A stretch of 55,772 nt of DNA, taken from NCBI GenBank assembly GCA_964550425.1, contig CAZJZB010000005.1, forward strand, positions 1-55,772. The letters run 5' to 3'. A program made the translations under genes and the position numbers. The notes under the pieces are model-generated. The model saw only the letters and a program-made list of their open reading frames with translations, was not told the DNA's origin and ran no database searches. Shown here piece by piece: positions 1 to 8,843 of the stretch (positions within the stretch are counted from its first letter, which is position 1; the number at the start of each line of letters is the position of its first letter). This DNA comes from an uncultured Candidatus Saccharibacteria bacterium (GTDB lineage: Bacteria; Patescibacteriota; Minisyncoccia; Phycocordibacterales; Phycocordibacteraceae).

Positions 1-3000
1 AGCGTTTGAATACAGGAGGCGGTTGGCGTTGATGGAGGAGAGGCCGGTGCCGCCGGAGGAGACCGGGAGCGCAGTGGTGAAGCTGGCGGATGCGGCAGAG
101 AGTGCGCCGCTAATGGAGGCAGTACCGGTAGCGGTGAGGTTCGCAAGAGATAGATTGCCGGAGAAGTATCCGTTGCCGTGCACCGAGAGGAGTGATGATG
201 GGCTCGTCGTCCCGATACCGACGTTGCCGCCGAGCGTGGCGAAGTACGCGGAGCCGGTAGAACCGATTTGTGTCGTGGAAGCATTGCCAAGCGTGGTGAG
301 ACCGGTGACGTTGAGGGTGGAGGTGGCGGTGAGTGCTCCGCCGAAGAAAGAGGAGCCGCTGGTGTAGAGGTTGCCTTGGACGGAGAGGAGTTGTGAAGGA
401 GAGGTGGTGCCGATGCCGACATTACCGCTTATTATCATATTCCCTGCGCCAGCATCTGTACCAACATAACTATTACCAAGCGATAAACCTCCCGTTGCAC
501 TTAAACGCATTCTCTCGTTTGTTGCTCCTACTCCATTTGTGGCGAAACGAATCGGATTAGAACCCAACGTAATCATGTTGAGACCGCCGACATCGGAAAT
601 CATGTATCCCTGATTAACTATAAGGCCATTGGTGTTTGTTGTTCCGCCTACACCAAATTCAACCCATCCAGTTCCAGCCAGACCACTGTCATTAAATGCG
701 CGATACCCTGCGGCCCCACTTGCGGAAGAATTTACTATTGCTGTGTATGAAGTTTCAGAGGCTTTAGACCCAGTGATTACCATTGGGATACTCACATTGC
801 TTGTGCTAATTGTTACCGTATTCTCAGTTTGGGAATTTTTTAATTCAAGAACCGAGTCCAGATTTCCGTTGCCTCTCCCGACTGCGAAAGCCAACTTTCC
901 ATTTACATTGTTAGAAGAAATGGAATCGACCACATATCGTATATCCGCAATATTTAAGAATTTAGAACCTTCATAAGCATTCGCACCGAACTCGCCCACA
1001 ATATCATTGGCCACCGATATTGTGGGGCTGGCCAGTGTCCCGCGAGAACCGAAAAGGGCCACATATGGGTAGACGGATGTCCCAGCCGTCTGCGCGTTCC
1101 AACCAGCAAAATTTGATTCTCTACGTATTATCGCGTCCATCGGGGCAGTCACATTGAACGTAGTAATTGGTGCCAAATTTGTACCGTTGCCCACAAGGAT
1201 AGCCGGAAGCGTGAGAGAGTCTCCAGCGTCCACCTGCAGTTTTGCCGCAGGACTCGTGGTGCCGATGCCGACGTTGCCGGTCGGATTGATGTAGAGCGAG
1301 CCAGCCGGAGCGCCCTGATTCACTGTGAAGGCGGTGTTGTGCGCGACGATACCGCCGAAGGCGTACTCGCCTTCGGCGGGAACTTGGAACTTGGAACTTA
1401 GTTCTTGGACGAGCCCCGATGCAAACTCGCGGAGAGAGCGCGTACCTGCCGCATCAAGGCGAGCGAGCGAGAGCGCAAGCTGTTGTACGAGTCCGTCTTC
1501 AACATCCCGAGATCTCTCGCGAGAGTCAGTGTCGTCAGCGTCTCGTTCAACGATCCGAGCGATATTGTCAAAAATCGCGCGAAGTCCGTCTTGCTCTGCC
1601 TGCCCTGCCCCTCCGCGATGTTGAGTGGTACCGAGAGAACCGCGCGACGCAATTGGCTTATTATTCCGAATTGCTCCGACTTCGGAAACGCCAAAGAAAC
1701 TTTGTATACATCTCGCGAGAGTGTCATCGCTTCCTGCCAAACGCGCAGCTTTTCGTAGTTTGGTTGCAAGTTCGCATCTTCGTTCATTGCTATCAGTGTA
1801 TTCCGCTAAGCTCCAAGCTCCAAGCTCCAAGCTCTGTCGCAGGACAACAAGCTCTTCCTGCTCGGACGTGAGCGCAGTATTCGTCCGAGCGTCTATATAA
1901 TGTCCTGCGATGAAATTATGCGTGCCCTCTATTTCAACGTCATAGACATCTTCTTCAGCGACCGATTCGACGGAAACGATGCGGTCCCAAATGCCGCCGC
2001 CGTCCGCGGCGGCGGCGATTTCCATACCCTCTTTCAGCTCCGATACTTTGAGCCAGGAACCCTCGCCTGCGCGGACGTTATCCACACCAGTTTTGGAGAT
2101 GCTTGACAGCCCAAGCAGGTCGGCTATACTCGTATTACCTTTCTTCAAGACCCGCCCGCGAGGCGGGTTTTGCGTTACCGCATCACCTCCTATCAGAAGG
2201 CCGGATATGAATTTATTAAACAGACCGAGCGTCACGAATTTGCCAGCGGCGAGCAAAAGTTCACCTGATAGATACTTGCGGTCAGAAACAACAGTGACGT
2301 TCTTGCCGAGTTCGCGCAGGTGTTTTACCAACGGCACAAAGTCGCCATCACCGGAGAAAAGTACGAAGTTGTCATACTCATCTGAAAACTTAAGCGCGTC
2401 AGTTGCAATTTCGACATCAAAATTCGCTTTTGGTTGAAGAAGCCGCACTCCTATCATATCGAGTCGCTTGGCCTCGCGCAAAAGATTTGTACGAAGATTA
2501 ACGGGCAACGCTTCAATCCAGCGACGATTGAAAGGCTTCTGAAGTAAACCGAGAAAACTGATATTAAAATACTGGACGGGTTTTGTAACAACCGTGTAGC
2601 CGAAGGAGGTAATCTTTGCGAAGAATGAAGATGATTTTTCGTTACGTATATCAGTACCGTAATAGAAACGAATCGCCGTAATACCAGCGGCAAAGAGCGT
2701 ATCATAGAGCACTTCCAGATCAATAGTTCGATAACCGCGATCGCGATACCCAGCTTTTATATTCGCAAAGTCGATAAATGCTACAGAACGCGAAAGGCCA
2801 CGAGCGATGCTCGTAGCCTCTCCGTAGGCAGGACGAGATGCGAATCCAGCAGCAACCAACTTTTTAAGCCGGCTCGCATCTCTTTCCCCGTACTGTCCTC
2901 CAGTTCCTGGTAGACCAGAGTGAGCGGATCCAGGGTTGCCTTCACCGCCGGGAACATCTACTGCAACACGCCGCGCCAGATACGGATGATTCGCCGTGGT

Positions 3001-5838
3001 GCGGATTGACTTCCCCGAGGCCGTGGTGAGTTTGTACGTCTGCTTTGTGCCCATGTATGCGAGACGCTTCACTTTTGACCACACAAGCTCACCTGTTTTT
3101 TCATCAAGCGATTGAATCTCGTCACTTTCTTTAATATTGATGATTTCAACTTCGTCATACACATACACATCATCAGCGAAATATGCACGACCGGCATGAT
3201 ACACTCTACGCAAGCCGGCAGCTCGGTGCGGGATCAGGTTTGTCACTCTGTGTCCCGAGGGTTCGATTCCCTCTGCCGGCTTGATTAGGTTATCCACAGG
3301 ACCATTTTGCGTACTTGACGTGGAAAACCAGTTTGCTATACTCCCTTTGACAAACCTGGTCCATCCGCCCGAGTGGGACATACGAGGGGAATCGCCATCC
3401 GCAAGGGTGGCGGTTTCCTTTTCCGCTCCGTCTTTCGGTTCTTCATAGAATTCCCAACCGGCGTCTTCAAGGTCCTTCTTGCTGCGACGCCGCCGCAACT
3501 TCGTATCCCCCGTCACGCACTGCCCCGCGACGAAGCCGCCGGCGAAGGTGCTGGTTGCCGTCGTGGATGTTGCAAAGAAATTCTGGGCGACAACTTGGCC
3601 CGCGACCGAGAGCAGTGAGTACGGACTCGTCGTCCCGATGCCGACGTTGCCTCCGGTGGTGGCGAGGTACGTATTCCCTGTTACAGTAAGTTGCGTTGTT
3701 GAAGCATTGCTATTGAATTGTTGAAGCGCGGTCCATGTGTTTGCATTGCCGAGATTGAGCGAGAGGGTTGTCGCTGAACCGCCCACGAGTGCGCCAAGAG
3801 AACCAGAAGAAGAGAGCGAGGAACCGACCGCGACGGATGAGGTGGCGACTGTAGAGAAGTTTCCATAATGAAGCTGGTCGCTTGTGAAAGACGTTTGGCC
3901 GGTGCCGCCGTTCCCAACCGCGAGCGTGCCGGTGATGTCTGTCCCGAGATTAACGAGAGCGGTTGCGACGCTTCCTGCGGTCGCTTTGAGGAAGCCGGAG
4001 AGGTTAGCAATGGATAGATTGGAGGTGAAGAGATTTGAGGATGAGGCGGTTGTTGCGAAAAAGTTGGTTGTGGTTGCGTTTGTGGTCGTGCTGTTGATCG
4101 CGAGGAGGTTCGGAAACGTATTGTTTGCCGTGGTGGTCGCGGTGAAGTATGCTGCCACCGTTTCGCCAACAACCGACAATTTTGCGTATGGCGAGGTAGT
4201 GCCGATGCCGACGTTGCTTTCGGAGGAAATGCTGAGTGTGGAGGTTGCGGTCAGAGTCGTGCCGACGTATGAAAGTGTCTGGCCTGCCGTACCGGAAGGA
4301 AGAGAGCCGGAGGAAAGACAAGTGCCGTTGACGGCGTAGCATTGGTTGGCGGGAATGTTGATGCCGTTGCCATAGAAGGTGGTGGTGCCGGTGGTGAAGT
4401 TGGCGATGCCTTCGATGGAGAGGAGTGAGCCGGGGGTGGTGGTGCCGATGCCGACAGAGCCGTTCTCAAGTACGGTGAAGAGTGTTGTTGAAGCGGAGTT
4501 TACGAAATTGACGAGTTTAGTTGAGCCAGTGCCAGCACCCCAGACGGTTAGTTTTGCATACGGGGTGGTAGTGCCAATGCCAAGATTGGTCCCATCAAAA
4601 ATCAAATTCGAGCTGTTGGCAAACCCTGAACCGTCAAAGTACTCGACACCGTTTGTCACCCCGCCGGTAGTAGTGCCCGTACCGCCATTTGCAATAGGGA
4701 GTGCTAAGCCGCTGTATGAGACAGTGAACGTACCCGCTGATGTGATAGGAGAGCCCGAGACAGAAAGGAATGAGGGGACCGATATTCCAGCGGAAGTAAT
4801 ACCTGTGCTGATACCGCCGCTAACAATGACGGCTCTGCCGCCGGTAGCAGAAATAATCGGGTGCTCCGGTGTGCCCGTAATAGAAATATTCGTACCGGCA
4901 GTGATTGAGTTAATGACGTTTGATGCGAACACGCGACCAGAGCCAGCGTTGATATCGGAATTGCCAGTGTCGATGCCTCCGAGTGTCTGTAGGCGGCCGC
5001 TGAACACCGAGAAACCGAGGGTCCGTAACGCGCCGCCAATCGCTACCGACCCCGCGTTGATATTGGAATTGCTCGTGTCGATGCCTCCGAGTGTCTGCAG
5101 GCGGCCGCTGAACACTGAAGATCCCGAAACTTGGAATGAGCCGTTAATCGCGACCGGGGTATTGATACTGAGGAGAGTGGTGCTTGACGCGTTTTGCGCA
5201 CTGTTGATTTTGTTCACCAAAGGTAACCCTGAGTTTTTTGTACTGGTTGCGGCGACTAATTTTGAATCTGCCGCGGGTGGCGGGGAAGATGTATTCTCGT
5301 TTCCTAATGATCGTACCAGAGCAAGAAGAGATGCGAATGCGGTCTTTACACCGTCGATAGCGGAGACGGAAGAATGTATCAAAAGGGTTGATGCCTCGGA
5401 TAGAATACTCGCAGCACTTTGTGTCGATGCACTTACTGAGATCCGTTCAGGAATTAAAAGTGATTGAACCGTACTATTGACCGTACTGAAGTTTGTTGAA
5501 ACGCTTGCGACAACAGCGACAACAGTGAGAGTCATCGCGATTCTACCAAGGGTTAAGAAAGGGTGTCGAGCACCCATATTCTGACTTGATCGATCACCTT
5601 GGTATTCTATTTTACGTTTTTTCGATAGATCCTCATTCAGATTCTTATTCTGATCCTCTTGCAAATCAATAAATTTCTTAAATGAGAGCTCATCAACATA
5701 CCAGGAATTTCCAATTTTTTCTCCATCTACTTTCCCAAAACGACACATCCTTGATATGTAGTCGTTTGTATATCCTACTCGCCGAGCAAGTTCTTTGGAT
5801 GAAACTAACTGACGATTTAAAAGATTTTTGTTTTTCAT
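1..5838 (-). CDS. Giant surface/fibre-like protein (3'-partial, at least 1946 aa): N-terminal HTH, TM segment, S/T/G-rich GNVGIGTT repeats, contains an intein
   Basis: ATG at 5838. Manual triplet check found no stop down to base 1. Starts MKNKNLLNRQLVSSKELARRVGYTNDYISRMCRFGKVDGEKIGNSWYV; hydrophobic LTLGRIAMTLTVVAVVASV; seven xxVGIGTTxP-type repeats. Missing from the ORF track because no stop lies in the window. Confidence 0.95.
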   Translation of the reverse strand, partial: MKNKNLLNRQLVSSKELARRVGYTNDYISRMCRFGKVDGEKIGNSWYVDELSFKKFIDLQEDQNKNLNEDLSKKRKIEYQGDRSSQNMGARHPFLTLGRIAMTLTVVAVVASVSTNFSTVNSTVQSLLIPERISVSASTQSAASILSEASTLLIHSSVSAIDGVKTAFASLLALVRSLGNENTSSPPPAADSKLVAATSTKNSGLPLVNKINSAQNASSTTLLSINTPVAINGSFQVSGSSVFSGRLQTLGGIDTSNSNINAGSVAIGGALRTLGFSVFSGRLQTLGGIDTGNSDINAGSGRVFASNVINSITAGTNISITGTPEHPIISATGGRAVIVSGGISTGITSAGISVPSFLSVSGSPITSAGTFTVSYSGLALPIANGGTGTTTGGVTNGVEYFDGSGFANSSNLIFDGTNLGIGTTTPYAKLTVWGAGTGSTKLVNFVNSASTTLFTVLENGSVGIGTTTPGSLLSIEGIANFTTGTTTFYGNGINIPANQCYAVNGTCLSSGSLPSGTAGQTLSYVGTTLTATSTLSISSESNVGIGTTSPYAKLSVVGETVAAYFTATTTANNTFPNLLAINSTTTNATTTNFFATTASSSNLFTSNLSIANLSGFLKATAGSVATALVNLGTDITGTLAVGNGGTGQTSFTSDQLHYGNFSTVATSSVAVGSSLSSSGSLGALVGGSATTLSLNLGNANTWTALQQFNSNASTTQLTVTGNTYLATTGGNVGIGTTSPYSLLSVAGQVVAQNFFATSTTATSTFAGGFVAGQCVTGDTKLRRRRSKKDLEDAGWEFYEEPKDGAEKETATLADGDSPRMSHSGGWTRFVKGSIANWFSTSSTQNGPVDNLIKPAEGIEPSGHRVTNLIPHRAAGLRRVYHAGRAYFADDVYVYDEVEIINIKESDEIQSLDEKTGELVWSKVKRLAYMGTKQTYKLTTASGKSIRTTANHPYLARRVAVDVPGGEGNPGSAHSGLPGTGGQYGERDASRLKKLVAAGFASRPAYGEATSIARGLSRSVAFIDFANIKAGYRDRGYRTIDLEVLYDTLFAAGITAIRFYYGTDIRNEKSSSFFAKITSFGYTVVTKPVQYFNISFLGLLQKPFNRRWIEALPVNLRTNLLREAKRLDMIGVRLLQPKANFDVEIATDALKFSDEYDNFVLFSGDGDFVPLVKHLRELGKNVTVVSDRKYLSGELLLAAGKFVTLGLFNKFISGLLIGGDAVTQNPPRGRVLKKGNTSIADLLGLSSISKTGVDNVRAGEGSWLKVSELKEGMEIAAAADGGGIWDRIVSVESVAEEDVYDVEIEGTHNFIAGHYIDARTNTALTSEQEELVVLRQSLELGAWSLAEYTDSNERRCELATKLRKAARLAGSDDTLARCIQSFFGVSEVGAIRNNKPIASRGSLGTTQHRGGAGQAEQDGLRAIFDNIARIVERDADDTDSRERSRDVEDGLVQQLALSLARLDAAGTRSLREFASGLVQELSSKFQVPAEGEYAFGGIVAHNTAFTVNQGAPAGSLYINPTGNVGIGTTSPAAKLQVDAGDSLTLPAILVGNGTNLAPITTFNVTAPMDAIIRRESNFAGWNAQTAGTSVYPYVALFGSRGTLASPTISVANDIVGEFGANAYEGSKFLNIADIRYVVDSISSNNVNGKLAFAVGRGNGNLDSVLELKNSQTENTVTISTSNVSIPMVITGSKASETSYTAIVNSSASGAAGYRAFNDSGLAGTGWVEFGVGGTTNTNGLIVNQGYMISDVGGLNMITLGSNPIRFATNGVGATNERMRLSATGGLSLGNSYVGTDAGAGNMIISGNVGIGTTSPSQLLSVQGNLYTSGSSFFGGALTATSTLNVTGLTTLGNASTTQIGSTGSAYFATLGGNVGIGTTSPSSLLSVHGNGYFSGNLSLANLTATGTASISGALSAASASFTTALPVSSGGTGLSSINANRLLYSNA
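1352..1379. repeat. 28-bp palindrome (REP-like), family member 1
   Basis: ccgccgaaggcg-tact-cgccttcggcgg, perfect 12-bp stem; similar element at 54069-54096. Confidence 0.8.
1379..1401. repeat. Heptamer tandem array (GGAACTT)x3+AG, downstream arm of the stem enclosing the four-helix gene
   Basis: ggaacttggaacttggaacttag; inverted relative to 1806-1828. Confidence 0.9.
1398..1787 (-). CDS. Four helix bundle protein (23S rRNA IVS protein / Avd-like family), nested out of frame inside the intein
   Basis: YEKLRVWQEAM..FPKSEQFGIISQLRRAVLSVPLNIAEGQGR..FLTISLGSLNET is the family signature; own ATG and TAA. Confidence 0.92.
   Translation of the reverse strand: MNEDANLQPNYEKLRVWQEAMTLSRDVYKVSLAFPKSEQFGIISQLRRAVLSVPLNIAEGQGRQSKTDFARFLTISLGSLNETLTTLTLARDLGMLKTDSYNSLRSRSLALMRQVRALSASLHRGSSKN
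1806..1834. repeat. Heptamer tandem array (AAGCTCC)x~4, upstream arm of the stem
   Basis: ctaagctccaagctccaagctccaagctc; reverse complement of 1806-1828 matches 1379-1401 at 20/23. Confidence 0.9.
2078..2130 (+). promoter_or_regulatory. DnaA-box-like 9-mer plus sigma70-type promoter, antisense inside the intein (module A)
   Basis: TTATCCACA(2078-2086)-N16-TTGACA(2103-2108)-N16-TATACT(2125-2130). Confidence 0.7.
2146..2172 (+). terminator. Terminator-like hairpin of module A
   Basis: caagacccgcc-cgcga-ggcgggttttg; the G-U pair and GCGA loop favour the + strand. Confidence 0.6.
2224..2784 (-). other. NYN (LabA/DUF88, PIN-like RNase) domain in frame within the intein
   Basis: VAFIDFANI...RFYYG...KANFDVEIATDAL...FVLFSGDGDFVPLVKHLRELGKNVTVVS; the acidic catalytic motifs are present. 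Confidence 0.9.
3211..3283 (+). ncRNA. tRNA-like structure (acceptor stem plus T-arm, reduced D-arm, GTC-containing loop)
   Basis: caagccggca/tgccggcttg 10-bp stem stacked on GAGGG-TTCGATT-CCCTC; CAGG-TTTGTCAC-TCTG arm; TGaTACACT extended -10-like motif at 3197-3205. Confidence 0.55.
3290..3342 (+). promoter_or_regulatory. DnaA-box-like 9-mer plus sigma70-type promoter, antisense inside the intein (module B)
   Basis: TTATCCACA(3290-3298)-N16-TTGACG(3315-3320)-N16-TATACT(3337-3342), with extended TG; same spacing as module A. Confidence 0.72.
3348..3422 (+). ncRNA. Putative ~75-nt small RNA
   Basis: Lies between promoter B and an intrinsic terminator; 5' end is estimated. Confidence 0.5.
3387..3422 (+). 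terminator. Intrinsic terminator of module B
   Basis: gggaatcgccatcc-GCAA-gggtggcggtttcc-tttt; 14-bp stem with three G-U pairs valid only on the + strand; GNRA loop. Confidence 0.75.
4946..5115. repeat. Intragenic direct repeat, ~62 bp x2, period 108 nt
   Basis: 4946-5007 vs 5054-5115; encodes VFSGRLQTLGGIDTxNSxINAG twice. Confidence 0.85.
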
Positions 5839-6337: not shown

Positions 6338-6601
6338 TTAGATATCACTATATATCTCTACTTTATTGTTTTTAACACTAAGAACGGCGGTCTTGTATCT
6401 AAATGTCTGATCTTCTTTCATTCTTGCTCGTATGACAATTGGCTCATTTTTTATCATGGTTACGAAATTGGCATGCCCCGGTAGAACATCAAACTGACCA
6501 GCACTATTTGCTGATGAGACGCTGTACGCCACCCCTTCCCAAATACGCTCCTCTGCATTACTAATTGACACCGCAAATTCTTCGACTTGCTGTTGCTTCA
6601 T
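6338..6601 (-). CDS. atpC: F1 ATPase epsilon-like subunit (N-terminal beta-sandwich only)
   Basis: GQFDVLPGHANFVT motif; follows atpD; 87 aa. Confidence 0.85.
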   Translation of the reverse strand: MKQQQVEEFAVSISNAEERIWEGVAYSVSSANSAGQFDVLPGHANFVTMIKNEPIVIRARMKEDQTFRYKTAVLSVKNNKVEIYSDI

Positions 6602-8007
6602 GATAGTACGTCGGGATTATCCACTTCAAGGTCTTTGGTCGTTCCAATATACATGAATTTTTCTGGCTGGACTGAATCAAACTTCCCTTCCAGTATTGCC
6701 TCGACATCAGATACGACATCTTCGCGACTTACGTATACACCAGGAAGTCCCGAATGCTCTTCAGCGGTAACGGTTAATTGCGTCATGTAGTTTCGTAATC
6801 GCATCGCTCGTTCATACATACTGCGATCTTGCGCCGATAACTCACCCTCTCCGATGATGGTAACGATGCGAGCCAGCCGTTCGTACTGATTAAGCACCCG
6901 TATGGCTTCAGTAACCGATTTCAAATGTCGCTCGGTAATATAGGCGCGATCAAGCGCCAATGATTTTGATTTAAGAATATTAACCGCCGGGTAACGCCCC
7001 TCTTGACTCATCTCCCGCGCGAGTACCACAATGGCTTCAAAATAAGGGGTGGCGGCCGCAACTGACGGGTCGGACAGATCGTCAGCAGGAACATATATGG
7101 TTTGTATTGAGGTAATCGAATTTTTATCAGTGCTTACCAGACGGTTTTCGAACTGAGCGATTTGTGTTTGAAGCGTTGACTGATAGCCAAACTCAGACGG
7201 GATTTCTTCAAGAAGCGTCGAGAGCTCGTTTCCCGCCTGAACGAATCTGAATATATTGTCCACAAAAAACAATACATTGGTTTTTTCTTCATCGCGAAAG
7301 TACTCAGCCAGCGTCACAGCAGCCGCTCCAATCTTGAAACGAATTGCCGCATTTTCGTTAATATGCGCAACGATGAGCGCCGATCTCGCAAGCTCGCCGG
7401 TTTCTTGTAATAATTCCCAGAGCTCAAACCCTTCACGAATGCGTTCGCCAATACCGGTAAAAATCGTGACATTTTTATGTTCCTTATTGAGGTTTCGAAT
7501 CATCTCTGTCAGGAGCGCCGTTTTGCCGACACCTGCGCCTCCTACAAGTCCGAGTCGTCCACCCTCAATGATCGGCATAAAGAAGTCGATAACCTTAATC
7601 CCGGTCTCAAGCAATTTCCGCTCCTTCCCTAATTTCAACCCTGTGGTGCGCGTGATTGGGTTAATCGGTCGAGAATCGCTATAGGCAAGCATCTCGCCTC
7701 CGTCAACAGGCCGGCCATACAAATTGATGGCGCGCCCAAGCACACATGTTCCTACGGGAATGGAGAGCGTAGCGCCATCAGTCACAATACGCATGTTTCG
7801 AGACACATTCTCTTTTGGAGAAAGGAGTAGGCAGTAGAGCATGTCCCTGCTGGAATAGGAGTGGACCTCGAGCTGTACATCCACCGCATCTTCTGCGGAA
7901 AGAAGCTCGAGAAGCGACGGACGGTACTCACTCTCGCAATGCACAAGGACTATTTGCCCTTGCACCCCGTATACGCGCCCCACAAATTGTTTTGTTATTT
8001 TTTCCAT
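6598..8007 (-). CDS. atpD: F1 ATPase beta subunit (divergent)
   Basis: LETGIKVIDF, GGAGVGKT, GIGERIREG, FFVDNIFRFVQAG, SITSIQTIYVPADD. Confidence 0.97.
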   Translation of the reverse strand: MEKITKQFVGRVYGVQGQIVLVHCESEYRPSLLELLSAEDAVDVQLEVHSYSSRDMLYCLLLSPKENVSRNMRIVTDGATLSIPVGTCVLGRAINLYGRPVDGGEMLAYSDSRPINPITRTTGLKLGKERKLLETGIKVIDFFMPIIEGGRLGLVGGAGVGKTALLTEMIRNLNKEHKNVTIFTGIGERIREGFELWELLQETGELARSALIVAHINENAAIRFKIGAAAVTLAEYFRDEEKTNVLFFVDNIFRFVQAGNELSTLLEEIPSEFGYQSTLQTQIAQFENRLVSTDKNSITSIQTIYVPADDLSDPSVAAATPYFEAIVVLAREMSQEGRYPAVNILKSKSLALDRAYITERHLKSVTEAIRVLNQYERLARIVTIIGEGELSAQDRSMYERAMRLRNYMTQLTVTAEEHSGLPGVYVSREDVVSDVEAILEGKFDSVQPEKFMYIGTTKDLEVDNPDVLS

Positions 8008-8843
8008 TTTGAAATCGCGGAGAAAGATTCGAGCAGACGCAGATCGTTGAAATTTGCGGCCTTTCTACGCATCATTCGGCGCGAGCGAATGATTTCCTCT
8101 TTTGAACGATCCTGGGCTGTGTTCATAGGAATCAATCGTGCTGCGGTGCGCGAGAGCTCTGATTCAAGCATGACTCGCTTGAAGAGCAGGTAACGAACTT
8201 TCGTCTCAAAAAAATTAAGGATTTTCGGAAGTTCCGGTTCAAAAATATAATCAAATGCCAGTGTTACCTCATTCCCTGTCTCGACATGCGGTGCATACGT
8301 AATATCTTGCATAACTACTTTTTGATTGAACACATTGCGAAATGAGGGGTAGAATATCTGCACCTGGCTGTACGCAGCAACGCTCTTTAGAAATTGTCGC
8401 CTCTCTTCTTCTGTCGGTTCATCTTCTGTAAATGCATAGTAGGAAGAACGTTTCTGTAAATCGGGAGTATTCCCCATAAGCATCTTCCCCGTCCTACCTA
8501 TGACGATGTAGTCGGAGGTGACGCCACTGTTCATATGCCGAGTAAAAGCTTCTATCACCTCTGCATTGACCGCTCCATAGAAACGTATGTTCGACGTGAA
8601 CGCTACGGTCACGGTTTGAGTTACGGTTGCTGATTTCTGCGGCAACTCGCCACGATCAAATGCCGTCTGTTTAATAGATTGATAGAGAATCGCGATGTCC
8701 TCATAAAAGGCCTTGTTTTTTTCGAAGGCGGCGCGCAATCGGTTTATTTTTTCGGCGCTCACATCAAACAGCGCCGAGGCGACGAAACCGATCGTCTCGA
8801 GGTCTTCCAATTCATCCTGTCGTGTTCCTAGGGCGTTTGACAT
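7995..8843 (-). CDS. atpG: F1 ATPase gamma subunit (divergent)
   Basis: Between alpha and beta; TSNIRFYGAVN, YIFEP, SELSRTAARLIPM. Confidence 0.9.
   Translation of the reverse strand: MSNALGTRQDELEDLETIGFVASALFDVSAEKINRLRAAFEKNKAFYEDIAILYQSIKQTAFDRGELPQKSATVTQTVTVAFTSNIRFYGAVNAEVIEAFTRHMNSGVTSDYIVIGRTGKMLMGNTPDLQKRSSYYAFTEDEPTEEERRQFLKSVAAYSQVQIFYPSFRNVFNQKVVMQDITYAPHVETGNEVTLAFDYIFEPELPKILNFFETKVRYLLFKRVMLESELSRTAARLIPMNTAQDRSKEEIIRSRRMMRRKAANFNDLRLLESFSAISKWKK

Follow-up and report, generated by a model that had tools for sequence, protein, structure and literature searches.

Can a protein-splicing element in a surface-protein gene shelter genes and regulatory RNAs that have nothing to do with its own splicing? 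The question is raised by contig CAZJZB010000005.1 (55,772 nucleotides), which we call the window and which is the whole 55.8-kb contig. It comes from a tiny groundwater bacterium whose genome assembly comprises 738 kb in 28 contigs and is rated 100% complete, and whose close relatives are annotated as Kaiserbacteria or Patescibacteria. One end of the window is occupied by a giant repeat-rich gene, codons 774-1501 of which form an intein that has taken up several pieces of additional DNA, among them a gene in another reading frame and an RNA module on the opposite strand. We propose that this is probably a splicing-competent intein sheltering secondary invaders, which would be read through during translation and discarded at the protein level.

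Judged from its sequence, the element is a true class-1 intein, and its family is specific to Patescibacteria. The first-pass annotation of the window had listed a complete set of splicing motifs (C1, TxxH, block F and HN/T) in a frame that stays open for 728 codons, and both statements hold: there is no stop in 1336-3519 (-), and the NCBIfam models score above their cut-offs. Block B (T175..H178) is matched by TIGR01445 (intein_Nterm) at 26.6 bits against a cut-off of 24.5, the F/G region with His-Asn and Thr+1 by TIGR01443 (intein_Cterm) at 18.9 bits against 15.6, and Pfam Intein_splicing with an E value of 4.8e-13; the N-terminal nucleophile, C1 of CVTGDTKL, is the same in all 18 aligned inteins. 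The frame being contiguous, this is not a split intein. An AlphaFold2 (AF2) model of the 728 residues, built on 18 homologous inteins, has a mean predicted local distance difference test score (pLDDT) of 62.6, with 71-89 in the Hint lobes, 80-95 in an NYN nuclease domain, values below 35 for residues 27-112 and 188-241 (insertions 1 and 2 below) and long helices at pLDDT 52-73 for residues 540-720. Foldseek aligned mini-inteins (Ssp and Npu DnaB, gp41-1) over only 62-69 columns, at about 2 Å and with E values of ~0.01-0.02. We infer that the window intein is competent to splice.

The additional DNA stands out against 17 other contiguous inteins of the family, collected from relatives. Blocks F and G had been described as normally adjacent, and so they are ('HNF..N.I.AHN') in 17/17 of these inteins; in the window intein they lie 184 codons apart. 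The closest cargo-free relative, L069 (76% identical, 399 amino acids, with an NYN domain), is without residues ~28-112 (insertion 1), ~186-236 (insertion 2) and 539-722 (insertion 4). G078, from the same genus, and L067 are also cargo-free, and both occupy the same extein site as the window intein, with ..STFAGGF.VG(Q/L) before the intein and TAF.. after it. Three insertions had been claimed at the outset. Those after block A and between blocks F and G stand, and the third has to be redrawn: a ~38-residue insert inside the NYN domain (2434-2547) and the linker that follows this domain are shared by L069 and L068, so that we rejected both as cargo and regard them as ancestral to this intein subfamily, and a ~50-codon piece at 2812-2964, which had not been singled out, is cargo-like. 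When each intein segment was compared with the whole genome by BLASTN, no second copy turned up, and hence no sign of the cargo as repeated DNA in this genome.

Insertion 4, the piece between blocks F and G, is found in other genomes. An exhaustive phmmer search of 1.84 billion representatives with the intein-frame product of the cassette gave five matches: P0006, which is the locus we call L066, P0003, P0007, the fragment P0008, with the cassette in the same loop, and one weak, unrelated protein. L066, a 1593-nt contig of a Minisyncoccia metagenome-assembled genome, had come from a profile scan of GTDB species genomes and has the same cassette in the same loop with both frames open; it starts inside the intein and so shows only block F and HN+T, both intact. 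P0003 (2252 amino acids) holds a full intein with the insert and P0007 a Hint C-terminal part with the insert; the cassettes of P0003, P0007 and P0008 are known from the protein sequence in the intein frame alone. C1, TxxH and HN+T are kept in the window intein and in P0003. The C-exteins that follow the cassette-bearing inteins differ (TAFT, TYVS and TYLG, three extein sites), which indicates that after the cassette was gained the loaded intein, or the C-terminal part that bears the cassette, has spread. Cargo thus varies among homologues, from none (L069, G078, L067) to the F-G cassette (window, L066, P0003, P0007), with the frame kept open, as the first-pass annotation expected of a landing pad, and this reading is in large part borne out. 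Its further terms, 'neutral' and 'any stop-free DNA', are overstated, since the ends of the cassette and its leader are conserved.

The gene nested in the cassette, predicted at first sight as an out-of-frame four-helix gene, encodes a full-length four-helix-bundle (4HB) protein (PF05635, E 1.4e-35, 122.1 bits against 33.8; TIGR02436, E 1.6e-32, 111.9 bits against 24). With the 4HB protein held fixed and synonymous codons drawn from the genome's own usage, only 1 of 20,000 resamples left the intein frame without a stop across the gene, as it is in the window, the mode being 7 stops; for L066 the count was 0/20,000, with a mean of 9.2 stops. The corresponding frame of 31 free-standing homologues holds 1-12 stops (mean 5.6), and the third frame of the nested gene 10-11 (10 in the window). 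Over 390 gap-free nucleotides, window and L066 are 75.6% identical. Identity in the 4HB frame is 70.8%, and its codon differences divide into 31 synonymous and 38 non-synonymous; for the intein frame, identity is 54% and the differences are 13 synonymous and 59 non-synonymous. By 4HB codon position, the nucleotide differences number 24/23/48. This pattern indicates purifying selection on the nested 4HB protein and an intein frame constrained mainly not to stop. Scoring by codon usage could not tell the overlapping frames apart.

Outside the gene, structure appears to be selected. Two heptamer arrays that flank it pair as a 21-bp stem in the sense RNA, by means of G.U pairs, and are mismatched on the other strand; the cassette region folds with z = -5.15, and the stem-to-stem span of 456 nt is a multiple of three. 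The leader hairpin and the terminal hairpin keep their pairing in L066 despite sequence change, the peptide encoded by the latter being wholly different (PAEGEYAF in the window, PEFEFLEF in L066) with the palindrome kept, a pattern that speaks for selection acting on structure and not on peptide. The window intein, L066, P0003 and P0007 share conserved peptides in the non-overlapped leader ('AGHY.D.RT..AL..EQE') and the tail ('LSSK.QVP').

Both the protein and the stem resemble the intervening sequences (IVSs) of rRNA genes. Genes for 4HB proteins occur in 34/222 genomes of the genus, all in short frames, and this genome holds two more, both free-standing between housekeeping genes. Flank duplexes with z <= -4 enclose 10 of the 30 free-standing homologues evaluated, often with 7-nt periodic repeats, and Rfam placed three of four scanned free-standing loci inside rRNA genes (23S in L063, 16S in L046 and L064). 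Like these elements, the window cassette is an ORF (open reading frame) between two element ends that pair into a long stem; it lies not in an rRNA helix but in a protein-coding frame, and there is no Rfam rRNA match in the window. Family, stem flanks and rRNA-located kin together identify it as an IVS-type element in an unusual place. In the free-standing loci L037-L065 the inverted repeats are often imperfect 7-nt units (e.g. TCAGnnn x4) whose arms co-vary unit by unit, and such repeats may act as a signal for binding or processing. The genome has a gene for RNase III.

Features of the host gene and its intein, in window coordinates (4HB, four-helix bundle; IVS, intervening sequence; sRNA, small RNA)
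Feature	Positions	Strand	Evidence or remark
Host gene, giant repeat-rich ('GNVGIGTTSP') protein, 1946 codons	1-5838	-	runs off contig end
Intein, 728 codons, stop-free, junctions GQ/C and HN/T	1336-3519	-	motifs, Pfam/NCBIfam models, homologues
Block A, CVTGDTKL (C1)	3496-3519	-	C1, D5, T6 invariant in 18 inteins
Insertion 1, ~85-95 codons, boundaries uncertain by ~30 nt	3184-3474	-	absent from L069, L068, G078
tRNA-like RNA, antisense to host frame	3213-3281	+	
Promoter-like site TTGACG-16-TATACT of the module's sRNA	3315-3342	+	
Putative sRNA	3349-3426	+	5' part complementary to tRNA-like arm; ends in 16-bp GCAA-loop hairpin (3385-3420) and T run
Hint N-terminal lobe; block B TxxH at 2986-2997 (TTANHPYL)	2965-3183	-	NCBIfam, alignment, AF2, Foldseek
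Insertion 2, ~50 codons, before NYN	2812-2964	-	absent from L069, L068, G078; cargo-like
In-frame NYN nuclease domain, at usual homing-endonuclease position	2227-2778	-	Pfam, AF2, Foldseek
Antisense promoter-like site (TTGACA-16-TATACT), then hairpin and T run	2103-2172	+	conserved in L069, L068
Hint C-terminal lobe; block F VYDVEIEGTHNF	1906-2079	-	Pfam, NCBIfam, alignment
Insertion 4, IVS-type cassette, 552 nt = 184 codons, between blocks F and G	1354-1905	-	
Leader hairpin, 10-nt arms	1837-1910	-	kept in L066 via compensatory change
Heptamer array (GGAGCTT) x3.9, 5' arm of cassette stem	1808-1834	-	
4HB gene, 129 amino acids, PF05635/TIGR02436, +1 frame of intein	1398-1787	-	
Heptamer array (AAGTTCC) x3, 3' arm of stem; includes TAA of nested gene	1379-1399	-	
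Perfect 12-bp terminal hairpin	1352-1379	-	L066: different sequence, also perfect palindrome
Block G, GGIVAHN, then T+1	1336-1356	-	A726, H727, N728 invariant in alignment

These observations could be joined as follows. The intein family colonises genes for repeat-rich surface or tail-fibre-like proteins and at least one SMC gene, and the window copy has probably been invaded secondarily by other selfish or regulatory elements: a stem-flanked 4HB cassette of the rRNA-IVS kind in the beta-turn between blocks F and G, a copy of an antisense tRNA-like/promoter/sRNA/terminator module after block A, and a ~50-codon piece before the NYN domain. As every insertion spans whole codons and leaves the intein frame without a stop, the ribosome would read through the cargo, the Hint lobes would fold around it, and it would be lost with the intein when the exteins are ligated.

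It is conceivable that the cassette is instead removed from the RNA, with RNase III cutting the heptamer stem, the 4HB RNA set free, the mRNA ends rejoined, the intein as translated a canonical one and the open frame incidental. The stem that pairs only in the sense strand, its span in whole codons, the enzyme encoded in the genome and the same-family cassettes in 16S and 23S rRNA genes of relatives all fit this idea, and excision of an IVS by RNase III is documented for Coxiella (PMC4990558). It offers no reason, however, why 129 overlapping codons are kept stop-free in two diverged genomes; in the Coxiella case, as far as that account describes it, the rRNA is left fragmented and is not religated (PMC4990558), and an RtcB ligase was not found in this genome, rated complete as it is. 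We therefore consider removal at the RNA level very improbable. Nearly as hard to credit is true dual coding, in which the intein-frame product of the cassette would itself be functional, for example as a helical module that gates splicing. The long helices of the AF2 model and the conserved leader and tail peptides speak for it; against it, the intein frame of the overlap has changed mostly non-synonymously, substitutions cluster at third codon positions of the 4HB gene, and the peptide of the terminal hairpin has been replaced completely with the palindrome retained.

A dead or decaying intein, whose 728 residues remain part of the mature surface protein and are tolerated there as a domain, or whose gene copy is heading for loss, is a more serious contender, though still an unlikely one. 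The host belongs to a numerous set of repetitive paralogues in which large inserts are tolerated, G050 has the tRNA-like module in the extein of a giant frame, and block G is modelled with low confidence. Yet all catalytic residues are intact in the window and in P0003, as are block F and HN+T in L066; the cassette-bearing intein stands at three different extein sites, the 1946 codons of the host ORF, 1-5838 (-), contain 0 frameshifts or stops, and the NYN domain is full-length and modelled with high confidence. That the locus is a chimera joining an intein to unrelated pieces was named in the first-pass annotation as one of the findings that would undo it, and a metagenome-assembled genome, a repetitive host gene and a contig break at 3623-3649 would invite such an error. 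We find it hardly believable: an independent contig of 3599 nt from a public run spans the whole intein, covering 51-3649 with 0 differences at an even depth of ~16, a second sample yields identical pieces, including 3119-3331, which spans an insertion boundary, and the same architecture recurs in the independent assemblies of L066, P0003 and P0007. Several points nonetheless count against a sheltering, splicing intein. Stop avoidance shows the importance of translating the cassette but does not establish that the intein leaves the protein. The stem, with its 21 bp, has the look of an RNase III target, and the host mRNA would be severed if the enzyme cut it. Block G has a pLDDT of only 43 and the global predicted template modelling score (pTM) is only 0.42, and we know of no tested precedent for a 184-residue insert between the last two Hint strands. 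Only occupied extein sites (G078, L067) were seen and no intein-free allele was found, no search with the joined junction having been made. At the contig break, finally, the N-extein joins the intein contig through a repeat covered at high depth. With these points included, we still hold the sheltering intein to be the probable explanation.

In runs X2 and X4, short contigs join 1399 to 1808, between the heptamer arrays, with sides of only 21 nt; they probably come from other organisms. P0003 carries, at residues ~1290-1310 after block B, a peptide 'NLELRTENLDNPSSKLQAPSS' that reads as if two heptamer arrays, facing each other and directly adjoining, had been translated. It looks like an empty cassette stem, and the short contigs may be something similar.

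Insertion 1 proved to be of a different kind. The tRNA-like fold noticed there at first pass is real in that it belongs to a covarying family of 14 copies; it is not a tRNA. The RNA has a 7-bp acceptor, a canonical T arm GAGGG-UUCGAUU-CCCUC, no D arm and a covarying 7-bp long arm with loop UUGUCAY. We rejected a true tRNA gene on the grounds that ARAGORN gave 0 hits, Rfam tRNA-Sec scored 25.8 bits against a cut-off of 47, the D arm is missing and the loop is non-canonical; neither ARAGORN with its default settings nor Rfam with its gathering scores gave a match in the window, no tRNA of the genome itself has the acceptor stem of the element, and the module has no Rfam family. A 26-nt pattern with <=2 mismatches found the 14 copies in 10/222 genomes of the genus (L080-L093), and a reversed control found 0. 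In their alignment 95.9% of cells pair, as against 82% in shuffles and 41-57% with partners slid, the covariation score of 0.44 (against 0.17) is reached by 0/500 shuffles, and the variable arm shows double changes at 7/7 pairs.

The promoter, sRNA and terminator that had been read after block A turn out to be a conserved part of the same module. Among the 13 distinct copies, 12 have a TTGACN-17-TATA(A/C)T site (by regular expression) after the element; then comes a stretch of ~55-70 nt whose start is complementary to the tRNA-like arm, and the module ends in a strong GNRA-loop hairpin with a T run. The loop of the 5' hairpin of the sRNA and the tRNA-like loop are complementary and could form a kissing pair. 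Most copies are intergenic; those of the window and of G050 lie inside long antisense ORFs, that of G050 in the extein of a 6358-codon frame, and P0003 bears the module's peptide footprint elsewhere in its intein (43.6% over 78 amino acids, E 1.6e-13). The antisense frame is stop-free in 5/13 copies, which means that insertion 1 can have been tolerated without special selection. A scan of 6.2 kb gave 7 promoters against 5.5 in shuffles and 3 terminators against 6.0, not above expectation, so individual sites gain weight only from their conservation in homologues. The antisense RNAs, and likewise the 4HB gene, are presumably expressed independently of the host gene. Insertion 2 forms two strong sense-strand hairpins (z -3.1; 1/200 shuffles folds as well), and a 58-codon ORF in another frame (2781-2957) has slightly better codon usage; no homologue was found among the collected loci and proteins.

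The NYN domain and the promoter and terminator placed after block B were likewise borne out. The domain (PF01936, residues 248-431, E 1.1e-21, 78.3 bits against a cut-off of 24.2) is a full family member, and Foldseek matched its fold to 2qip (E 1.5e-8, TM 0.76) and also to the NYN of MARF1. The antisense site and hairpin at 2103-2172 are conserved in the two closest inteins, with a compensatory change in the hairpin where the peptide differs. From its position we infer that the NYN domain serves as the homing nuclease of the intein, being in frame here and free-standing between the halves of split relatives. Among the papers listed by a literature search, none concerned NYN domains in inteins or inteins in the Candidate Phyla Radiation (CPR).

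These split relatives come from five genomes of the genus (L027-L031). The ORF with the N lobe closes directly behind block B, a separate ORF opens with the C lobe 2-3.4 kb downstream, and the cargo between them includes a free-standing NYN ORF (L028 and L029), a PemK/MazF-like gene, a Zn-ribbon/PD-(D/E)XK protein of ~430 residues that Pfam matches only weakly, a distant relative of 4HB proteins (hhalign probability 79.5%, E 1.5e-5) and, at one locus, a Bro-N gene. Their arrangement supports NYN as the nuclease of the element and the intein family as a recurrent site of cargo accumulation. Contiguous family members occupy many sites of similar repeat-rich surface or tail-fibre-like proteins, up to three per protein, and one sits in the Walker A motif of SMC. 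P0004, P0005 and L075 have two or three family inteins in a single surface protein, all with an unusual RRRR run after block A (CVTGDT.LRRRR) and with central regions that differ, NYN in some and unknown domains in others.

As for the setting, a Pfam search matched no family in the host protein outside the intein parts, and a Bact_surface_Ig-like domain is present in a homologous host, that of L029. ATP synthase epsilon-, beta- and gamma-like ORFs (6338-8843) share the strand of the giant gene and lie immediately upstream of it, judged from their translations alone, and the genome contains a second intein-splicing match (L004, G000:C1:42488-42823) inside a 1035-codon frame.

How far is this arrangement new? 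The first-pass annotation knew of no description of it, a claim that does not survive: out-of-frame homing endonucleases in inteins have been described. A cyanobacterial dnaX intein holds an out-of-frame LAGLIDADG homing endonuclease, which its authors, in the part of their preprint that deals with it, read as a secondary invasion (Phillips, DeSimone and Gogarten, bioRxiv 10.64898/2026.09.14.751524). There too a gene lies in another frame inside an open intein, with the nested frame under purifying selection and the intein frame relaxed; in contrast to our case, the nested gene is the intein's own homing endonuclease, in the central position (bioRxiv 10.64898/2026.09.14.751524). As far as that comparison reaches, the window intein differs in having an endonuclease-like NYN domain in frame, a nested gene for a non-nuclease rRNA-IVS protein with stem flanks between F and G, and extra RNA cargo. 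The methylase of phage ShiLan similarly hides an out-of-frame HNH gene in a stop-free in-frame insertion whose in-frame product is thought to loop out, but the passages describing it present no splicing domain, and the insertion is not removed from the host protein (PMC11855218). In view of these precedents the arrangement is not a new category.

Other known systems share single features. Our split relatives, broken right after block B, resemble the 'fractured gene' layout of Dassa et al. 2009 (PMC2677866); by comparison with the cases set out there, the window intein is contiguous, the hosts are surface proteins rather than DNA-metabolism enzymes, and the cargo of the relatives is multi-gene. 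PF05635-family ORFs in rRNA insertions of CPR bacteria are on record (PMC11270868), and the rRNA IVS (23S_rRNA_IVP / S23p) shares with the window cassette both this family and an ORF in the loop of a long stem (PMC4990558, PMC11270868). Unlike the IVS treated in those pages, our cassette stands in a coding frame that must stay open, and its removal would take place at the protein level, not by RNase III (PMC4990558). Several points are new here: the cargo includes an IVS cassette whose gene is not a nuclease, this cassette lies in the F/G turn, the NYN domain is in frame, the opposite strand bears RNA modules, and a single intein holds more than one cargo. Rickettsia palindromic elements are structured selfish DNA inserted in frame in protein genes, and remain in the mature protein. 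Bacterial intein-like (BIL) domains are Hint domains in surface proteins and are not known to have the canonical intein C-terminal junction, which the window element has.

A wider reading takes these strands together, and we hold it only tentatively, thinking it rather doubtful as a whole. Patescibacteria surface-gene inteins would be protein-level safe harbours for unrelated elements (4HB cassettes of the rRNA-IVS type, tRNA-like/sRNA modules and, in split versions, toxin-antitoxin and nuclease genes), NYN would add a new class to the homing nucleases of inteins, splicing and mobility would persist in the loaded intein despite a 184-residue insert between its last two strands, and the RNase III-type stem might link how much surface protein is made to the freeing of the nested mRNA.

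Should the loaded intein splice, the Hint fold would accommodate a large insert in the F/G turn and so offer a parallel in nature to engineered split sites whose C-fragments are very short. The dual-frame selection signature would mark the PF05635 IVS protein as functional, and this family would gain a third habitat besides rRNA genes and intergenic gaps. NYN is a candidate for a new type of homing nuclease, and the tRNA-like/sRNA module would be one undescribed in CPR genomes. If splicing occurs, moreover, the idea of secondary invasion would extend beyond homing endonucleases, and protein splicing could shelter arbitrary genetic cargo in essential or abundant genes.

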